A stretch of 64,000 nt of DNA from the NCBI GenBank assembly GCA_022969815.1, contig GCA_022969815.1_4535.1; one strand, 5' to 3'. Below the pieces are notes generated by a model, which saw only the letters and a program-made list of their open reading frames with translations, did no database searches and was not told the origin of the DNA. The translations under genes and the position numbers were made by a program. This stretch comes from Escherichia coli. Its GTDB lineage: Bacteria > Pseudomonadota > Gammaproteobacteria > Enterobacterales > Enterobacteriaceae. Within the stretch, counting starts at the first letter, position 1. The number at the start of each line of letters is the position of its first letter. Shown here one piece after another: positions 4,275 through 61,060 of this stretch.

Positions 4275-4453
4275 TTCTGCTTTATTCCGGTAAGGCAAAA
4301 TACATGCAAGGTGTTAAGCGTGTAGAGGTTACTAAGACGGTTACAATTGGAAAGTCTTTCGTGGTATACTGCTTCCTTGTTAACGGAACAGAGTATGCTG
4401 TTGCAAAGACTTTGGTTGATAATGGTAAAACTTGGAAAGTGGAGGCACTATGA
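4271..4453 (+). CDS. hypothetical protein (60 aa)
   Basis: ORF, start overlaps upstream stop. Confidence 0.45.
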   Translation: MILLYSGKAKYMQGVKRVEVTKTVTIGKSFVVYCFLVNGTEYAVAKTLVDNGKTWKVEAL

Positions 4454-4647: not shown

Positions 4648-5129
4648 AAATAAAAATTACTAAAGCAGAGGTAGATAATCCACAATTCTTTTCTTTGAAT
4701 AAAAGCTACGATATTAAAAACGGAGACGAGTTTGATGTTGTAGATATTGTAACAGAGGCTGATGGTGTAGACATTGGATATATGATTGTTCCGCCTTGTG
4801 GTGGTAGTCCTATTATCGTATTGCGTGACGAAGCTGTAGAGGTATGTTCCGATGAACCTCCATATGACAGCCCATACATGACAGAGTGGGTTGTTGCTGT
4901 GGATGTTGGAGGTATGGTTTCTGTACTGAAAGCTCCTAATCTCCACCCTGGCTTCACAGAGAACGGTAAGACAGCTTTGGATTACGGGTTGCCGGAAGAT
5001 GTTGACAATACACCGCCAGGTATGTATCGTTGGATCTGCTCTTTCCACGAAGAGAAGGATTGGGAATCAGGTCTTGTGGATGATTGGCATTTCGAAGTGG
5101 AGAGTTCCTTTTTAATCATGCCAGCTTAG
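4644..5129 (+). CDS. hypothetical protein (161 aa)
   Basis: ORF, start overlaps upstream stop. Confidence 0.55.
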   Translation: MKIKITKAEVDNPQFFSLNKSYDIKNGDEFDVVDIVTEADGVDIGYMIVPPCGGSPIIVLRDEAVEVCSDEPPYDSPYMTEWVVAVDVGGMVSVLKAPNLHPGFTENGKTALDYGLPEDVDNTPPGMYRWICSFHEEKDWESGLVDDWHFEVESSFLIMPA

Positions 5130-9980: not shown

Positions 9981-10007
9981 TGAGAGTTAAATAATAGGAG
10001 GAAATAT

Positions 10008-10886
10008 ATGTTCGTTAAATCTTTTAAATCTGCACTTCCGATGGTTGCTGGTGATAATGCTTCTGTAGCGTCTCTGAACGAGTTCAACGAATTTCCGATT
10101 GACTTTGTACCTGCCGAAGGATCTCAAGCCCATACTATTGGTCTGGTTCGTTTTGAAGATGATGGGAAATACGTAAAAGAGTTCTCCGATCTGGAACTCC
10201 TCCAGGTTGGTCAATCTGTTAAGAAAGTTGACAAGAAGAAAGTTAAACGTCTTCTTAATGAACGCTTGGAAGAAATTCGAGTAGATATGGAAAGCCAAGG
10301 TCAAGAATTCTTTGTCGCTAAAGAAGACATGAAAGTCCTGAAAGCTGATATTGAATTTGGTCTGCTCCCAGAAACCGAACCGGAAGATTTCTTCAATTAT
10401 GTGGTTCTGGATAAAACAACCAACCTGTTCTATGTGATCAATGGTAGTAAGAAAGTAGCGGAAGCTATTACTTGCTTCTTCCGTAATGTTTTGGGGACTT
10501 TCCCCTCTGTAGGTTTTAGTGTGCACGAAGAAGCAATTGTCAAAGGTTTTGGTACATTGCTGAAAGAACACGAAGCTGATCGCCTTACTCTTGGCAATTA
10601 CATTAAACTGGAAGATAGTGAAGGTGTTGTTGTCTGGACGAAAGAATCTCTTTACGATTCCAAAGCAATCGAACTTAAAGAAGATGGTAAAGATGTTGTC
10701 GCTATTGGCTTGGAGTACGATGGTGTGCTGGAGTTTGTCGTAGATAAAGAGTTGAAGTTGAGCAAGCTTCGTTTCCCTAAATACTTCAACGATGACGAAG
10801 GCTCTATTGAAGCATCTACTCTACTTTGCTTCAACGAGATTCGTGGTTTGATGGCAGATCTGACGAAAGCAACTATTCTTAAATAA
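10008..10886 (+). CDS. hypothetical protein (292 aa); weak resemblance to RdgC-type recombination-associated proteins
   Basis: ORF with AGGAGG SD; resemblance is by overall length and N-terminal pattern only. Confidence 0.5.
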   Translation: MFVKSFKSALPMVAGDNASVASLNEFNEFPIDFVPAEGSQAHTIGLVRFEDDGKYVKEFSDLELLQVGQSVKKVDKKKVKRLLNERLEEIRVDMESQGQEFFVAKEDMKVLKADIEFGLLPETEPEDFFNYVVLDKTTNLFYVINGSKKVAEAITCFFRNVLGTFPSVGFSVHEEAIVKGFGTLLKEHEADRLTLGNYIKLEDSEGVVVWTKESLYDSKAIELKEDGKDVVAIGLEYDGVLEFVVDKELKLSKLRFPKYFNDDEGSIEASTLLCFNEIRGLMADLTKATILK

Positions 10887-26426: not shown

Positions 26427-27182
26427 ATGGGAAAAACAGCTACCGCTAAATCACCGCGCCAGAAGTTAGCTTCTAATGCGAAAGTAGAAAGTCGTTATGC
26501 TGCAAAAGCAGTTGGAAATGATGACTATCGTTTAGATGGGTTTTCACCAGAAGGAGATCAGCAACAAATCGTTCAAAGTATGATCTGGAATGATCTTACA
26601 GTCGTAAATGCTCCAGCAGGGACAGGCAAGACTTCCGTGACTTTATGGAAAGCTTTGCAGATGCTTCGAGCAGGAGATTTCCGTAAGCTTCTTTTTATTA
26701 AAAACCCGACTGAAGTTGGTGATGATCAGATTGGTTTCCTTTCAGGAGATAAAACTGATAAACTGGCGGCGCACTACGAATCAACCAAACGAATCTTCCA
26801 GCAGTTTATGACTGCAAACAAATTAGAGAATGATATTGGTTCCGGTAAGATTGAACTTAATATCCCGAACTACCTACTGGGTGCTACCCTGGACAACACT
26901 ATCGTGATCATTGATGAAGCACAGCTTATGTCTCCAGAAACATTAAAACTTCTGGTAGAGCGTGCAGGGATCAACACTCATGTTGTTGTTCTTGGAGATG
27001 TTCGTCAAACCTACGCTATCAAAAAGCGTGCAAACGGTTTGAAAGATCTTCTTGACAAAGTTGCCCCTGAAGGTGAAGATGGTGTTCGTGTCCCTCTGGT
27101 AGACTTTATCGGTTATGTGCAGTTAACCACAGATGACAACAAACGATCTCGTTTGTCTAAGTTCATCACGGAAATTTATTAA
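26427..27182 (+). CDS. phoH: PhoH-like ATPase
   Basis: Walker A NAPAGTGKTSVTL, Walker B IVIIDEAQ; AAGGAG SD. Confidence 0.75.
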   Translation: MGKTATAKSPRQKLASNAKVESRYAAKAVGNDDYRLDGFSPEGDQQQIVQSMIWNDLTVVNAPAGTGKTSVTLWKALQMLRAGDFRKLLFIKNPTEVGDDQIGFLSGDKTDKLAAHYESTKRIFQQFMTANKLENDIGSGKIELNIPNYLLGATLDNTIVIIDEAQLMSPETLKLLVERAGINTHVVVLGDVRQTYAIKKRANGLKDLLDKVAPEGEDGVRVPLVDFIGYVQLTTDDNKRSRLSKFITEIY

Positions 27183-27220
27183 TAACAAAAAGCAAGGATG
27201 CTTTATTAAAGGGAGGGTCG

Positions 27221-27718
27221 ATGGTACAGACAATTATAGATCGGACTGGTATTGATGAATGTTACCAAACTGGGCTTGTGAAGCCTAACGAGTTCCGACA
27301 GATTTGCGTGAATCATATTGAGAAAGAAATTGCACTAACTTTGGAGAACCTTACCCTCCGAGACAAGCTGTCAATGTTTGTGGCTTGGTGTAAAGGTGAA
27401 GATTGGTTATTGGCCCATTTTCAAGAACTTTCTGATAGTCAAGAAGGCTTATATGAATGTATAATAGGAATAGCTGGCTCCAATCCTGAACTTCTCCATT
27501 TGGAAGAAGAAGAGGCGAAGTTACTGTTCTTAAGCAACATGTTCAATCGTAAAGCATTGCTTGTTCGTGAGTGTAGTGATCTTTTAAATCATCCACTGGC
27601 GATCACAAACGAAATACTGGTTGACAAAGAGACATTACGTGCGATAGACTATCTGCGCAAGTATGTCAACGGCGGGAAAGCAGTTCTTAAAACATTAACA
27701 GAGGAGGAAGCAGAATGA
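27221..27718 (+). CDS. hypothetical protein (165 aa)
   Basis: ORF with AAGGGAGGG SD, coupled to downstream HslV-like gene. Confidence 0.5.
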   Translation: MVQTIIDRTGIDECYQTGLVKPNEFRQICVNHIEKEIALTLENLTLRDKLSMFVAWCKGEDWLLAHFQELSDSQEGLYECIIGIAGSNPELLHLEEEEAKLLFLSNMFNRKALLVRECSDLLNHPLAITNEILVDKETLRAIDYLRKYVNGGKAVLKTLTEEEAE

Positions 27719-43075: not shown

Positions 43076-43429
43076 TCATAGTCTTCCTCCATCTTTAAGA
43101 CGACTCTTAACCCAGTGCAGACGATCTGGATCTGTGTGTTGTGAAGCATTTTCCGAATCAAGTAAGTAAGCCTTTCTTCCGAACGGGTAGGTTTCACATA
43201 AACCTGCTTCAATAAACTGATTATACATCTCTTTCATAGTGTTTTCGATTAAATACCAGTTACCTTCTGGAAGGTCTAAATCATACAACCAATACTCAAG
43301 ATTACCACACAACCCTACAGAAGAGCTAAACACGTCTTCCATAACAAGGCCCGTCTCGTCTCCATTTTCAGCCCAAGATAACCAAGCCTGATAAAAATCT
43401 AAAAGTAATTTACTTGATGCAATCTTCAT
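43076..43429 (-). CDS. member of 10-copy paralogous small-protein family (function unknown)
   Basis: FYQAWLSWAENG ... GLCGNL ... YPF ... HTDPDRLHWVKSRL; start at ATG with AGGAGAG SD. Confidence 0.55.
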   Translation of the reverse strand: MKIASSKLLLDFYQAWLSWAENGDETGLVMEDVFSSSVGLCGNLEYWLYDLDLPEGNWYLIENTMKEMYNQFIEAGLCETYPFGRKAYLLDSENASQHTDPDRLHWVKSRLKDGGRL

Positions 43430-44321: not shown

Positions 44322-44584
44322 GAAACATACATAGAGTAAACAAGATCATTACAGTCTGTCGAGAACGTAGCACTGCAACCTTGAGATCTTAATTTGTCAC
44401 AAATCCCGCGTACAATCGAAGCTTGTAGTTCTTTACCTTGCGGTAGACCTAAAGCTTTCACTGGGTGTTGAATCTGTATGTTGTAGTAACCCTCTTCGGC
44501 TGCTGTTGTGATTAAGGTTTTTGCTCGTTGGATATACTCAAAGTTCACAGAGTCTGCCAAAGCGTGTAAAGAATATGCGTCCAT
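44315..44584 (-). CDS. hypothetical protein (89 aa)
   Basis: ORF with GAGGAGG SD. Confidence 0.5.
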   Translation of the reverse strand: MDAYSLHALADSVNFEYIQRAKTLITTAAEEGYYNIQIQHPVKALGLPQGKELQASIVRGICDKLRSQGCSATFSTDCNDLVYSMYVSW

Positions 44585-44593
44585 GTTACCTCC

Positions 44594-44929
44594 TCAAGAA
44601 CGATCGAGTTTCATTAAAAATACAATCATAGCTGCACGCAGGGGTTTATCGTCTCCACGGGACGGTACACCTTCTGTTTTCGCAAGCCAACCGCGAGGAA
44701 AACCATCTTCCCCTGTTACAGGGCTGATACAAATCCTGTGTTTTACTATGATAGCCCAAGCATCTGCTGGATCATTGCAGTAATCATACCAAGTGTAATT
44801 GCCGTTGCAGTCATTTCCCACCGATCGTCCATCCGCATTGTGCGGATAACCTAAAGGCTTGACACCGTGGACTGCTGCAAACACACGTTTGTTGATTTCA
44901 AAATCACTCATTACTCCATATTCTGTCAT
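44594..44929 (-). CDS. hypothetical Cys/Trp-rich protein (111 aa)
   Basis: ORF with AGGAGAA SD. Confidence 0.5.
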   Translation of the reverse strand: MTEYGVMSDFEINKRVFAAVHGVKPLGYPHNADGRSVGNDCNGNYTWYDYCNDPADAWAIIVKHRICISPVTGEDGFPRGWLAKTEGVPSRGDDKPLRAAMIVFLMKLDRS

Positions 44930-45257: not shown

Positions 45258-45587
45258 TTATTTACCCCCTTTCAGTTTTGATTTAACCCATGCCAACCGT
45301 TCTTTGTTCATATGTTGCGTGCCGTGCTCATAATCCTGCATATAAGCTAAGTCACCAAATGGGTACAAGGTGTCTTGGAAATCTTTGAAAAGCATTTCTG
45401 CAAATGCTTCGGTAACTTCGTCAATTTCTTTTAATGAAAACCCTTGTTCCAGTAACCAGTAAGACAAGGAGTCGCAAAGCCCAACAAGTGTGCTGAAGGG
45501 TTTGACATTCTCTCTTTTCGGAGCCACTTCAGCCCAGGCCAACCATGCCTTAAGAAATTGTTGGATAATCACTTCGTTCTTTGTCAT
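45258..45587 (-). CDS. member of 10-copy paralogous small-protein family
   Basis: FLKAWLAWAEVAP ... GLCDSL ... YPF ... HMNKERLAWVKSKL. Confidence 0.55.
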   Translation of the reverse strand: MTKNEVIIQQFLKAWLAWAEVAPKRENVKPFSTLVGLCDSLSYWLLEQGFSLKEIDEVTEAFAEMLFKDFQDTLYPFGDLAYMQDYEHGTQHMNKERLAWVKSKLKGGK

Positions 45588-45595
45588 TTTAGCTC

Positions 45596-46276
45596 CTATT
45601 TAATGTTCAGTTTGTTAAGCAGACGTTGAACCGTATAAGGGTGCCATGTGGTACTGCCACGAACAGTTTCAATTTTCTCTTCAGTAAAGATCTCTGCAAT
45701 TCGAGTCAGAGATGCTCCTGCTTTCCTCATTAACGTAACTTTATCACGAAGCTTCTCGGCATACAAGGTGCTTTTATCATTTTTTCGAGATTGTCTGTAA
45801 TCTTTACGAGACTCTTTATATTTTGGAGATGCAGATCCTAAGAGAATACCTTTGCTCTTAGCTACTGCCAAACCTTTTTTGATACGATCTGCCATACCAC
45901 GTACTTCCTGTTCTGCAAGGACAGATAGAAGCTGAATAACCATCTTGTCTGCATCCGGCATGATCGCAATCTTAACGTCAATCATTTCCAAGAGGATTGC
46001 TACCGAGGCGTTGTTACGACCTAAACGGTCCACTTTAGCTACCAAAAGCGTTGCTCCGGTAGCTTTACACATCTCAACAGCCTTGACAAGTTCTTTACGT
46101 TGCTTCCAGTCGCCTTTACCTGAATAAAATTCAGAAAACTCTCCGATCACTTCAGCCTCCGGCACAGATTCCAAGAAATAACGGATATCGTTTTCCTGGC
46201 TCTGCATACCATACTGGGCTTCACCTTTCTTCTGTTTAGACAAACGGCTGTAAACAACAAACTTTTTCATGATCAA
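45596..46276 (-). CDS. serine recombinase (resolvase/invertase family) with C-terminal helix-turn-helix
   Basis: N-terminal VVYSRLSKQKK...QSQ (catalytic Ser context), LLVAKVDRLGRN, C-terminal basic HTH; GAGGAG SD. Confidence 0.7.
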   Translation of the reverse strand: MIMKKFVVYSRLSKQKKGEAQYGMQSQENDIRYFLESVPEAEVIGEFSEFYSGKGDWKQRKELVKAVEMCKATGATLLVAKVDRLGRNNASVAILLEMIDVKIAIMPDADKMVIQLLSVLAEQEVRGMADRIKKGLAVAKSKGILLGSASPKYKESRKDYRQSRKNDKSTLYAEKLRDKVTLMRKAGASLTRIAEIFTEEKIETVRGSTTWHPYTVQRLLNKLNIK

Positions 46277-46303
46277 CTCCTCAATCGTTATCAGGATTCC
46301 ATT

Positions 46304-46507
46304 TTACAAACTTGAAGCAGTTATTGTCAAGGAATTTATTGGCATCTTTTCCTGTTTCCAAACGGTGCATTGTTCTTTAAGGGCTATCTGCTCATTCTGC
46401 ACGTCTGATACCGCATTAGCAAAGAGGATCAGAAATCCCAAAAAGACCAACATCAATAACAGATTAAAGAAAGTTTGAAAACTCATGCATCCTCCCATTT
46501 GATCCAC
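46304..46507 (-). CDS. small membrane protein (67 aa)
   Basis: LLLMLVFLGFLILFA hydrophobic segment. Confidence 0.45.
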   Translation of the reverse strand: MDQMGGCMSFQTFFNLLLMLVFLGFLILFANAVSDVQNEQIALKEQCTVWKQEKMPINSLTITASSL

Positions 46508-46737: not shown

Positions 46738-47065
46738 GCTGCACCTCCTCCAGACGGTCATACACCCAAGCAAGACGATCGAAGTTTTTGTGTTGGGTGC
46801 CGGACTTCTTCTCAATCCAATAACAAGGAATCCAACCTGACAGATCCCACTCGCCATCGAACGGATAGTTCCATTCTAAACCTTCCGCTTCAAACTGCTC
46901 TACCATTTCATCAGAGAGGGAAAGATACAAATCTTGGTCTTCCCCGCAATACACTTCCACTGCATGACACAAACCGCAAGCTTTGATGTTTTCGGGTGGA
47001 TTTTGACTCATAGCTTGATCCAACCACCACTCATAGAATTCCAACAACATGATACTTGATTTCAT
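46721..47065 (-). CDS. member of 10-copy paralogous small-protein family (divergent)
   Basis: FYEWWLDQAMSQNPPEN ... GLCHAV ... YPF ... HKNFDRLAWVYDRL. Confidence 0.5.
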   Translation of the reverse strand: MKSSIMLLEFYEWWLDQAMSQNPPENIKACGLCHAVEVYCGEDQDLYLSLSDEMVEQFEAEGLEWNYPFDGEWDLSGWIPCYWIEKKSGTQHKNFDRLAWVYDRLEEVQHGEEE

Positions 47066-47433
47066 TTGTCTTCCCCTTTCTCCATAAGCGGCGAAGCCGC
47101 GATCATCGACTTATAGACAACTTCGGCTGTTCGGGTTAGCCCCGTCCAGTCCTTCGCTGCCTCCAACATTTCTGGGGTAGGCTCTTTCGGGACCAAGACA
47201 TACCCTTCTGGGATACACATTCCACTCTCTTTCTTTTCGGCTTCTTCCGACATAACTTGCCACACTCCGTAGCTGCAATTCTCGAACAAACAGTAGAGTT
47301 CAGATCCTTCATCATCCACGACAATGAAACAGTTCTCATCTGCTACTTTGGCGTTGTAAATCCGACCTATGGTCAAATAGTCTCGGACATTAATAAACTT
47401 AGAGGCAAGAAACTTCACACGAATGTTTTTCAT
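47062..47433 (-). CDS. hypothetical protein (123 aa)
   Basis: ORF, coupled to neighbours. Confidence 0.5.
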   Translation of the reverse strand: MKNIRVKFLASKFINVRDYLTIGRIYNAKVADENCFIVVDDEGSELYCLFENCSYGVWQVMSEEAEKKESGMCIPEGYVLVPKEPTPEMLEAAKDWTGLTRTAEVVYKSMIAASPLMEKGEDK

Positions 47434-47669
47434 TTCTTAAACTCCGAAAAGCAACCCAAAGAGATGACCCCGCCATTATAGACGATAGCAAACTGGCACC
47501 CTGTTTTTGTGTCTGTGATGATGTAATCTAAAGCCCCAGTCATGCCAGTTTGAACAAAGCGATCCTTGGTTACAACTTTTGAGTCCGAGAAGCCGTTAAC
47601 TTTCGGCACAGTGTCTGCCATAACAGCAGGAGTCACCAGAAACAATGCGATCAGTAATGCCTTTTTCAT
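47430..47669 (-). CDS. small secreted protein (signal peptide)
   Basis: MKKALLIALFLVTPAVMA N-terminus; GGAGGA SD. Confidence 0.5.
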   Translation of the reverse strand: MKKALLIALFLVTPAVMADTVPKVNGFSDSKVVTKDRFVQTGMTGALDYIITDTKTGCQFAIVYNGGVISLGCFSEFKK

Positions 47670-47690
47670 AAATCCTCCAGTAACCTTTGG

Positions 47691-48005
47691 TTAGCCTTGA
47701 AATGAATTGCGACGACCAATACGGGCACAGCGATCACCTTCATAAGAGGTGAAATCCAAACTCACTCGGAAGCCAGGGTGGGTATCAGAGATCCCCACAT
47801 TCTTCACCCACATCTCGAAACTGCCAATATGTAAGGTCATAATGTTTACATACCATTCCAGCGTCACTTCTGTGCCGTCTACACCTGTGATGTAAAACTC
47901 ACGAGCGAAATGGGTGTCGTGCTTCTCTTTCTGACGCTCATACTTAGCGATTGCACCTTTCTCAACAGCCGCTTTCAGGATCACTTCTAATTCTTCTATT
48001 TGCAT
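47691..48005 (-). CDS. hypothetical protein (104 aa)
   Basis: ORF with AGAGGAGAGAG SD downstream of promoter. Confidence 0.5.
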   Translation of the reverse strand: MQIEELEVILKAAVEKGAIAKYERQKEKHDTHFAREFYITGVDGTEVTLEWYVNIMTLHIGSFEMWVKNVGISDTHPGFRVSLDFTSYEGDRCARIGRRNSFQG

Positions 48006-59642: not shown

Positions 59643-60488
59643 GATAATCTCCTCTCTTGGTTTCATGACAAACATCGTAACTCTCAACGAGGAACATCAT
59701 ACGATCAATCCTCGGCAATTACAATTCATTTATCATTGGTATTCCCTATCAATTATTCCATATATACCTGTTATTTTTGACACCCCTTTTGGTCAAATAT
59801 TAATCGGCAAAATATCTACGGGACGGTTCTTTGAACCTCCCCTCTGTTCCTGCGATTTATCGGCAAGAATATCATCGGCAAAGAGATGGAAAAGCCTTTG
59901 GTAGCAAGGATTTATGGCGAGTACGTCAGGACTGCTGAACGCGAATTTTCCGGCCCCTCCACTTCTGCGCGCCGGAATCCTCAAATATCAATGAGAATAA
60001 TTATCATTATCATTCGCATTCAATAACTTAGGCGATCTTTTCCCCTGCAATAAGGTTGGGCCTAACTTAACCATCACTTTTCAAACAATCCTTTATAAAT
60101 TAACTACTTAACAACCTAAACATATGATTACTACGGTGTAAAGGTGCCGCCCATAACAGACCGCCTATAAAATAAATGAGAATGATTATTATTCAGACAA
60201 TTCTTACAACAAATCGACCAATAAATCAAGATTTTTCTGATTTTATTTACGTTTAAGAGAACGTGCTCAACATATCCGCCATAGGCGGCTATCTTTCCCC
60301 GCAAACATTAAGCCTTTATCTTTCATCTTCCTGTATATCTGTACAGTGTGCAAGGTATCGCTACACGCTCGCCTTGCCCCCCGCATAATCCTTGACCGTG
60401 CTAATGATGATCACACTGAACGATAGTGATAACTCATGTAATAATTACATTGATTATTATATTACGCTTAACTATTCTTACATACAAT

Positions 60489-60615
60489 GCTAATAATAAG
60501 CCAGCGTAATTAGTGTAAGCGTAATACGCTTGCAATAATTGCAAGCTACATAATCACAAGAAATAACTATCACCGATAGTTATGATTGTGGGGGTGTAGT
60601 TGGCTTATTATTAGC
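60489..60615. repeat. inverted-repeat element: perfect 15-bp inverted repeats (GCTAATAATAAGCCA / TGGCTTATTATTAGC) flanking about 97 bp with two internal palindromes
   Basis: internal palindromes GCTTGCAAT-a-ATTGCAAGC and ATAACTATC-acc-GATAGTTAT; 14-bp direct repeat CGTGCTAATGATGA lies outside each end. Confidence 0.6.
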
Positions 60616-60659
60616 TCGCTACGTGTCCGGCGTAGCGTGCTAATGATGAGGCTTGGAAT

Positions 60660-61060
60660 GATTCATTTTGCAATTATTACAGTCTTCACTATTTCGGCAA
60701 TAGGCACTATTTTACTAATAGTTGTTATTTTAATGGTTTCATTTGTTATCGTTAGTTAGTTGGTTGTTTTGTAGTGTTATCGTTATCTTGCTTAGTATTC
60801 ATCATGGTTTGATTGTTTGTCGTTATCAATCATCTTTCTATTATTCCTTTGATTATGATTAGTTTGCTTATTGTTTTAGGTTGTTGGTGGATTAGTTGTT
60901 GCGAACTATTATCAACATTATAGTTATGCACTTATATTGCATAGATACGCAAGGATAGATGATAATGGTTATCATTGCACTGGAAAGGAGGAAAACAGCC
61001 TTTTTCGGTTGTTTGTTGTTGGTTGTTGATCGATTTTAACCGCTCTAAATAGCTCTCTAA
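60660..61060. repeat. strand-skewed T/G-rich iteron-like region (C-poor on plus strand)
   Basis: recurring GTTATCGTTA, GGTTGTT, TTATCAACA (DnaA-box-like) words; no ORF of 60 aa or more on the minus strand. Confidence 0.5.

Follow-up and report, generated by a model that had tools for sequence, protein, structure and literature searches.

What does a small serine recombinase do in a lytic phage? This question is raised by a gene at 45596-46276, on the minus strand of a 64,000-nucleotide (nt) stretch of an Escherichia coli assembly (GCA_022969815.1, contig GCA_022969815.1_4535.1), referred to here as the window. An earlier note on this DNA had described the product as a serine recombinase of resolvase or invertase size. 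It proposed that the protein could drive an inversion switch, resolve replication multimers or mark an inserted mobile cassette. Our analysis supports that note in part: inversion fails, multimer resolution survives, and the mobile cassette survives in a weak evolutionary sense. The explanation that we put first, and hold only tentatively, is a trans-acting recombinase of the resolution type, working on replicating phage DNA at a single-copy site.

The identity of the protein as a small serine recombinase, and its intactness, are near certain. It matches the Pfam family Resolvase (PF00239) over residues 7-143 with 61 bits against a cut-off of 23.3 (E = 1.8e-16), as do 23/23 members of a family alignment in which identity falls to 28% (residue numbers follow the 226-amino-acid form), and it matches PHROG 125 'DNA invertase' with E = 7e-32. 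Y9, R11, S13, D83, R84, R87, E124 and R131 are invariant in all 23 sequences, the catalytic serine and arginines being lost in none. We take these residues to be the equivalents of Y6, R8, S10, D67, R68, R71 and R125 of gamma-delta resolvase, with E124 placed in the E helix. BLASTP against gamma-delta resolvase pairs VDRLGRN with LDRLGRD, and both catalytic motifs quoted in the earlier note are real. The protein is predicted to be catalytically competent. Its AlphaFold2 model (predicted local distance difference test, pLDDT, 90.8) shows a resolvase-type alpha/beta domain made of strands 4-12, 41-50, 76-79 and 101-103 and helices 22-37, 61-73, 89-98 and 111-141, the last being the long E helix. 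Foldseek matches the catalytic domains of Sin, gamma-delta and TP901-1, while the longest alignments are with large serine integrases.

The C-terminal part is where this protein leaves the familiar classes. A helical DNA-binding domain is present there in the model (helices 152-175, 177-185, 190-199 and 213-223), so that the C-terminal helix-turn-helix announced earlier stands as a domain, but not as the HTH_7 type of resolvases and invertases; it rather resembles PF07508/PF20552. In the protein itself the match to PF07508 'Recombinase' is weak, at residues 183-221, and covers only positions 13-50 of the 102 of the model. Among the family members PF07508 is matched by 14/23 and PF20552 ('recombinase-like HTH') by 4/23, whereas Pfam finds HTH_7 neither in this protein nor in any of the 23. 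There is no match to Zn_ribbon_recom, and the chain stops about 75 amino acids (aa) past the E helix. No NCBIfam model reaches its cut-off (YneB-like, 34 vs 175 bits; XisF, 30 vs 375; Mpi, 17 vs 272). When the family profile is compared with PDB sequences, the best match is Gin (4m6f, E = 4e-19), and Tn3 and gamma-delta resolvases are also found; these alignments end at about position 155, and only the SPbeta large serine integrase (9dxh/9dxd) aligns across positions 45-218. The C-terminal domain thus appears to be homologous to the start of the 'recombinase' domain of large serine recombinases. The family alignment, the domain counts and the plasmid homologues described below all display one architecture of about 215-260 aa, in which a single short PF07508/PF20552-like helical domain comes after PF00239. 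Because of the C-terminal domain matches and the PDB profile alignments, we assign the protein, from sequence comparison, to a short architecture, as yet uncharacterised, that is found in phages and small plasmids and stands apart from Hin/Gin invertases, Tn3-type resolvases and integrases alike. The enzyme is ordinary in kind, and several public records already name the gene a serine recombinase.

The carrier is a lytic-type phage, as had been supposed. BLAST aligns the window to Escherichia phage phiWec188 at 98-99% identity (98.8%), and to phiWec179/181/186 and 'Pseudomonas' phage PsgM04F at 94%. This group has recently been proposed as genus 'Wecvirus' of the Stephanstirmvirinae, lytic myoviruses with direct terminal repeats (PMC12695924), and the lytic character of these phages is also reported elsewhere (PMC10282059). 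Direct terminal repeats measure about 340 base pairs (bp) in the subfamily. Homologues of the recombinase were found by tblastn in 163 phage records, with amino acid identities of 73% in Phapecoctavirus, 55% in Justusliebigvirus, 50% in Klebsiella relatives and 31-39% in Vibrio and Shewanella phages of 130-140 kb; in some isolates of ICP1 the match (33%) concerns the catalytic domain only. Record counts by name are equal in the recombinase and tail-module searches (Escherichia 107, Campylobacter-labelled 5, Phapecoctavirus 3, Justusliebigvirus 3), which is consistent with presence of the gene in essentially every subfamily member. The ratio of nonsynonymous to synonymous substitution rates (dN/dS) is 0.06 against PsgM04F and about 0.15 against ESCO13 (overall range 0.06-0.16), and this low ratio indicates that the gene is kept under purifying selection as an enzyme. 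Some host labels among these records are doubtful: OR584014.1, 'Pseudomonas phage PsgM04F', aligns collinearly with E. coli phages at 94-95% identity, and the 'Campylobacter' phages MG065656.1 (C3) and MG065645.1 (A145) act as Justusliebigvirus coliphages in every search.

The relatives found outside lytic phages are instructive. A homologue over its full length (33-38% identity, 97-99% coverage) is carried by 105 plasmids, of which 90 are non-mobilizable, and the closest full-length non-phage relatives appear to be those on small plasmids. On pMaD11 (5.8 kb) and pP18_i (7.3 kb), the other recognisable backbone genes are just rep and parA-type, and a lone recombinase beside rep/par in a plasmid backbone is the usual make-up of a multimer-resolution module. 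These two unrelated Roseobacter plasmids also carry, upstream of the recombinase, a dyad of 34-36 bp, TGTATAAGAAC...GTTnTTATACA. No counterpart of TGTATAAGAAC was recognised in the phage, whose genome was not the subject of a dedicated pattern search. Other homologues have different company. One from Aeromonas, 41% identical, belongs to an integrated island of about 12 kb that also encodes a large serine integrase of 501 aa and a DUF5906 primase-like protein; nothing convincing as a res-like site was seen upstream of it. A Methylobacterium prophage homologue (29%) coexists with the prophage's own tyrosine integrase, and a JGI homologue (33%) adjoins a STAND-like ATPase. The Aeromonas recombinase gene occupies 10001-10654 of its stretch, convergent with the integrase gene, and the island, inserted beside dus, looks like a phage satellite.

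A further clue is the change of locus between genera. In muut (Justusliebigvirus) and in Klebsiella phage phi1_175008 the gene is part of a module ordered PhoH, HslV, methyltransferase, recombinase, HisRS-like, NinI, DprA. With the muut and Klebsiella module as query, tblastn finds the same PhoH-to-DprA module collinear in the window at 26442-33391, on the plus strand, without the recombinase. In the window, ESCO13 and PsgM04F, the gene is found about 16 kb from this module, on the other strand and among early genes. At the position that it holds in the sister genera, the window has an 'empty site' whose remnant resembles the promoter and ribosome-binding site (RBS) of muut and Klebsiella, and ends in AGGAGGGTATT at 29866-29876. 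Since promoter- and RBS-like sequence remains and the AGGAGG of the next gene follows directly, only the open reading frame (ORF) seems to be missing, between two RBS-like AGGAGG microhomologies. A hairpin is present at 29847-29874 inside this site. The module position is probably ancestral, because the copies of Shewanella phage 1/40 and Vibrio phage 1.063.O adjoin DprA-like or rIIA/rIIB genes.

Since the genome position varies between genera, the recombinase would have to act in trans on a site elsewhere in the phage genome. At every locus examined, across genera, the gene is accompanied by its own sigma-70-type promoter (a consensus match), which argues for a function independent of the neighbouring DNA and again for action in trans. 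Moreover, the gaps of 8 nt to the downstream gene and 33 nt to the upstream gene leave no room for an adjoining res- or hix-like site. We suppose that host RNA polymerase probably transcribes the recombinase early from this promoter, and that the enzyme would then recombine copies of one phage site that lie in direct orientation on replicating DNA, whether multimeric or circularised, the outcome being deletion or monomerisation rather than inversion. With one site per genome, resolution of head-to-tail multimers is possible and inversion is not. Resolution is also suggested by the full-length plasmid relatives sitting in rep/par-only backbones, an indirect support that makes the earlier proposal of multimer resolution plausible without establishing it.

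Several known systems can be compared with this protein. It shares with Tn3, gamma-delta and Sin resolvases and with plasmid multimer-resolution recombinases the catalytic domain, the E helix, all catalytic residues and a similar size, and the logic of a single site per replicon, as in plasmid multimer resolution, would fit the phage. On the other hand, Tn3 and gamma-delta resolvases possess HTH_7, an adjacent multi-subsite res and a transposase, none of which is found here, and the present gene belongs to a lytic phage whose DNA is linear and terminally repeated. The Cre/loxP system of P1 does supply a phage with a site-specific recombinase for the cyclisation of terminally redundant DNA and for multimer resolution. 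It offers a functional analogy to the proposed role only, Cre being a tyrosine recombinase of a temperate plasmid-prophage and not a serine recombinase of a lytic phage. In IS607-type serine transposases the MerR-like helix-turn-helix is N-terminal, whereas here the catalytic domain begins at residue 4-7 and the DNA-binding domain is C-terminal. The literature contains no experimental work on this gene that we could find; the single published comment guesses a 'resolvase for concatemers', without data (PMC10282059).

Where could a single-copy site be? phi92 has annotated direct terminal repeats of 343 bp, which align to window positions 59938-60030 and 60169-60275, with both boundaries kept in five genomes (boundary sequences AACGCGAATTTT at 59938 and AAATCAAGATTTTTCTGATTT at 60223-60243). 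Because of this homology, and of the ends of the WPEC4 and 10C3_SA_NWU records mapping to about 59940 and 60279, 59937-60270 is a probable physical genome end or concatemer junction. About 220 bp from this region, within the best-conserved non-coding block of the subfamily, lies the inverted repeat 60489-60615, with arms of 15 bp (60489-60503 and 60601-60615) and 97 bp between them. It is part of a cluster that also contains a perfect 19-bp palindrome (60528-60546), a 21-bp palindrome (60563-60583), a hairpin with 14-bp arms (60610-60644) and two direct copies of GTGCTAATGATGA, at 60398 and 60637. The motif GCTAATRATRA has four copies in the window, all at 60400-60649, for 0.09 expected, and this element is its sole location in the 151-kb genome of PsgM04F. 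The cluster is the only conserved non-coding element found in all recombinase-bearing genera, and it occurs once per genome. The inverted-repeat element folds as three hairpins (dG -35.8, z = -9.4); its outer stem changes from GCC/GGC to CGC/GCG in phi92 and muut, with paired substitutions in two inner hairpins, and its orientation is constant in five genomes from three genera. A search of the non-coding region against Rfam returned no family. This element thus appears to be a conserved, structured, single-copy cis element near the genome end rather than an invertible segment. Its ligand may be terminase, a replication protein or the recombinase. One hairpin loop is reverse-complemented in phi92 and muut, from CACCG to CGGTG. 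As to the other record ends, those of LC739539.1 (phiWec190) have about 148 bp in common, placed midway in the early region and equivalent to window 44518-44665, which looks like an assembler's circular overlap rather than a true terminal repeat.

The recombinase can be connected with the palindrome cluster. The early mini serine recombinase may recombine a single site in the cluster at about 60398-60649, thereby circularising incoming DNA or excising unit circles from concatemers; we consider this precise version speculative and decidedly improbable. If true, it would be a site-specific step in lytic replication outside the textbook schemes of T7 and T4, used by a whole subfamily of large lytic phages with terminal repeats.

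Several observations weigh against a resolution-type enzyme, at this site or any other. No recombination site was identified, including within the phage terminal repeat, and no recombination product was seen in the available data. As candidate sites, direct or inverted repeat pairs were limited to terminators and promoter-plus-stem-loop repeats in the window scan and in a self-BLAST of PsgM04F. Dyads with 11-nt arms and spacers of 6-18 nt are not enriched in the window (16 overlapping matches vs 6-14 in shuffled sequence). The plasmid homologues are just 33-38% identical, and their function is itself deduced from context. T7 and other phages with short terminal repeats pass through linear concatemers in replication and packaging and are not known to use a site-specific recombinase for this, so that no step obviously needs a resolvase. 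The motif cluster by the terminal repeat might just as well signal packaging or replication, or act as a structured RNA, and some of its palindromes have an odd-length centre, unfit for the 2-bp staggered cut of serine recombinases.

Alternatively, the enzyme might act early on non-phage DNA, such as the host chromosome, a resident prophage, a satellite or a defence island, to rearrange, excise or inactivate it in the course of host takeover or counter-defence. We regard this as unlikely, yet it accommodates several facts: the early-type promoter and a function not tied to the locus, the lack of paired sites in the phage genome, and the Aeromonas homologue next to a large serine integrase. The JGI homologue beside a STAND-like ATPase agrees with a reported association of small serine recombinases with defence loci (PMC13552941), and phage adsorption is reported to be influenced by PinQ and PinR, invertases of E. 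coli prophages (PMC12529663). Against it, no such target was identified, and a search of 5,426 complete E. coli genomes gave no DNA match to the recombinase gene region. Homologues are distributed among Escherichia, Klebsiella, Vibrio and Shewanella phages, so that a conserved host target would be needed. In addition, the C-terminal domain is unlike that of Pin/Gin-type invertases, which makes cross-reaction with their sites unlikely.

The gene could also be a selfish, moron-like module reduced to promoter and recombinase, moving between genomes and loci with little benefit to the phage. This possibility, which retains what is sound in the earlier idea of an inserted mobile cassette, seems to us somewhat less likely still. 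From one genus to another the gene does change its locus, with the module around it remaining collinear; at the empty site it is precisely the ORF that is absent between the two AGGAGG, and a promoter always travels with the gene. The ICP1 homologue is located in a block without legacy ICP1 gene numbers between numbered flanks, which may mark a block not present in all isolates. Around the gene, the DNA is more diverged from Phapecoctavirus than is the flank, ESCO13 matching only 46744-48000, at 91%. However, neither direct nor inverted repeats flank the gene, and it has no partners: the window annotation shows no transposase or other partner beside the recombinase, its neighbours being small phage proteins. 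The gene moreover appears to be retained throughout the subfamily, as judged by the matching record counts. Its low dN/dS and invariant catalytic residues also speak for a maintained function, although a selfish recombinase would show the same, and a single relocation in the history of the subfamily amounts to ordinary phage mosaicism.

The reading as an inversion switch is already largely refuted, and a DNA invertase controlling either tail-fibre host range or the 60489-60615 element is in our view very improbable. Such an enzyme is what the name 'DNA invertase' in PHROG 125 and several GenBank records announces; the protein is, like Hin, Gin, Cin and Pin, phage-encoded and of about 200 aa, with a catalytic domain nearest to Gin among solved structures, and 15-bp inverted arms do surround a 97-bp segment. 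The substrate is nonetheless lacking. There are no tail-fibre genes in the window, and those of phiWec188 are about 60 kb away, in agreement with the distance presumed in the earlier note. In PsgM04F, the annotated structural and tail-fibre module is entirely on one strand, with no oppositely oriented cassette, and each of 137 phage records aligns collinearly, at a single place, with the 24-kb tail region of phiWec188. Tail-fibre inversion was rejected on these grounds. A published difference in tail-fibre gene order between phiWec188 and phiWec190 (PMC12695924) proved to be a matter of record orientation: the two regions are 100% identical in a single piece, and the records sit on opposite strands. 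Neither PsgM04F nor any of the six close relatives departs from collinearity with the window, additional places of alignment being confined to record ends, and no inversion polymorphism was seen in more than 130 genomes. A repeat scan of the window and the whole-genome self-BLAST of PsgM04F (94% identical), which is the genome-wide look for paired crossover-like inverted repeats that the earlier note had suggested, revealed no inverted pairs besides terminators. Unlike the Hin/Gin group, the protein has no HTH_7, and there is neither an invertible segment nor flanking inverted crossover sites. Inversion of 60489-60615 itself was rejected on account of the constant orientation and compensatory stem changes of this element, and 97 bp would form a very short synaptic loop for an invertase.

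Lastly, that the protein is an integrase enabling lysogeny or a carrier state is scarcely credible: its C-terminal domain is related to large serine integrases, but it lacks most of what they have, its gene region has no counterpart in the E. coli genomes searched, which is evidence against integration, and the phages are reported to be lytic (PMC12695924, PMC10282059).

The likeness to large serine recombinases (SPbeta SprA/YokA, Bxb1, phiC31, TP901-1) nevertheless extends over the first part of their 'recombinase' domain, with SprA aligned through 45-218 and full-length Foldseek alignments. The difference is that the phage protein is less than half as long, has neither zinc ribbon nor coiled coil nor the remainder of the recombinase domain, and shows no sign of integration. 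In large serine recombinases, these missing parts set att-site choice and directionality.

This distinction has practical consequences. In the screening of phages for therapy, a 'recombinase' match is routinely read as a lysogeny warning, and Phapecoctavirus, Justusliebigvirus and 'Wecvirus' are often proposed for this use. A short non-integrase enzyme, with no integrated copy in 5,426 E. coli genomes and no inversion substrate, removes a false alarm. Besides, the intact recombinase that all genomes of the group apparently carry provides a tractable entry to site-specific recombination in lytic replication, or to conflict with host elements.

As for the gene itself, the ORF list of the window gives 45596..46276 on the minus strand as a 226-aa frame with a TTG start. 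The true start is almost certainly the ATG at 46270, to judge from the spacing of the GAGGAG motif and from the annotation of the gene as 672-675 nt in relatives, and the predicted product is refined to 224 aa, which keeps the resolvase/invertase size noted before. ESCO13 keeps the same promoter sequence upstream of its recombinase. The neighbourhood consists of tightly packed small minus-strand genes of unassigned function, among them phrog_2510 paralogues and a NinX-like gene. One such paralogue, 45258-45587, follows directly downstream, so that the recombinase does adjoin a member of the ten-copy family pointed out earlier. Positions of the features are collected in Table 1.

Table 1. Coordinates of the recombinase gene and of related features, in the window unless another molecule is named
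Feature	Position	Strand	Basis or remark
Small serine recombinase coding sequence, 224 aa, stop codon included	45596..46270	-	ORF, RBS, PF00239, PHROG 125, dN/dS
Catalytic domain and E helix, residues 3-143	45848..46270	-	Pfam envelope 7-143, secondary structure, Foldseek
Ser13 codon TCT, predicted nucleophile	46238..46240	-	Invariant S13 in Y9-x-R11-x-S13; sequence read directly
C-terminal helical DNA-binding domain, residues 150-226	45599..45829	-	PF07508/PF20552-type, HTH_62-like (predicted)
RBS GAGGAG	46277..46282	-	6 nt 5' of ATG at 46270, abuts TTG at 46276; sequence read directly
Putative sigma-70-type promoter TTGACA-18-TAAAAT, directly 5' of the gene	46301..46330	-	11/12 consensus matches; consensus match only
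'Empty site', position of the recombinase in sister genera	29825..29893	+	Promoter/RBS-like remnants; tblastn and junction sequences
Region homologous to the phi92 343-bp direct terminal repeat	59937..60270	.	phi92 annotation, BLAST and alignment, record ends
Palindrome/stem-loop/GCTAATRATRA cluster, single copy, including inverted repeat 60489-60615	60398..60649	.	Motif count, folding, covariation; speculative candidate cis site
Plasmid dyad TGTATAAGAAC...GTTnTTATACA	4308-4341 in one Roseobacter plasmid, 5008-5043 in the other		Candidate crossover site

The phrog_2510 family (about 110 aa) has exactly 10 paralogues in the window, between 43076 and 59696, all on the minus strand in the early region (at 43076, 45258, 46721, 48898, 49657, 53421, 54058, 58552, 58895 and 59262), and they share no common DNA-level repeats.

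Two other kinds of repeated non-coding sequence were encountered. Fur-box-like palindromes are located at 59993-60011 (-), 60175-60193 and 60961-60979 (-). One sequence, GATAATGATAATTATTCTC, inside the region equivalent to the terminal repeat, agrees at 17/19 positions with what we take to be the E. coli Fur consensus. A related 31-nt repeat lies in a second non-coding region of PsgM04F, at 44844-44874. The other kind is a unit formed by TTGACA-N17-TAnAnT followed by the stem-loop ACGTAGGGCGGCAATGGTGCCGC. It is found at 63979-63998 (-) and around 62504 (-) in the window and at 47.1-55.2 kb in PsgM04F, with eight near-identical copies before small early genes just past the window end. These units resemble the promoter-plus-stem-loop cassettes (PeSL) of T4-type phages.

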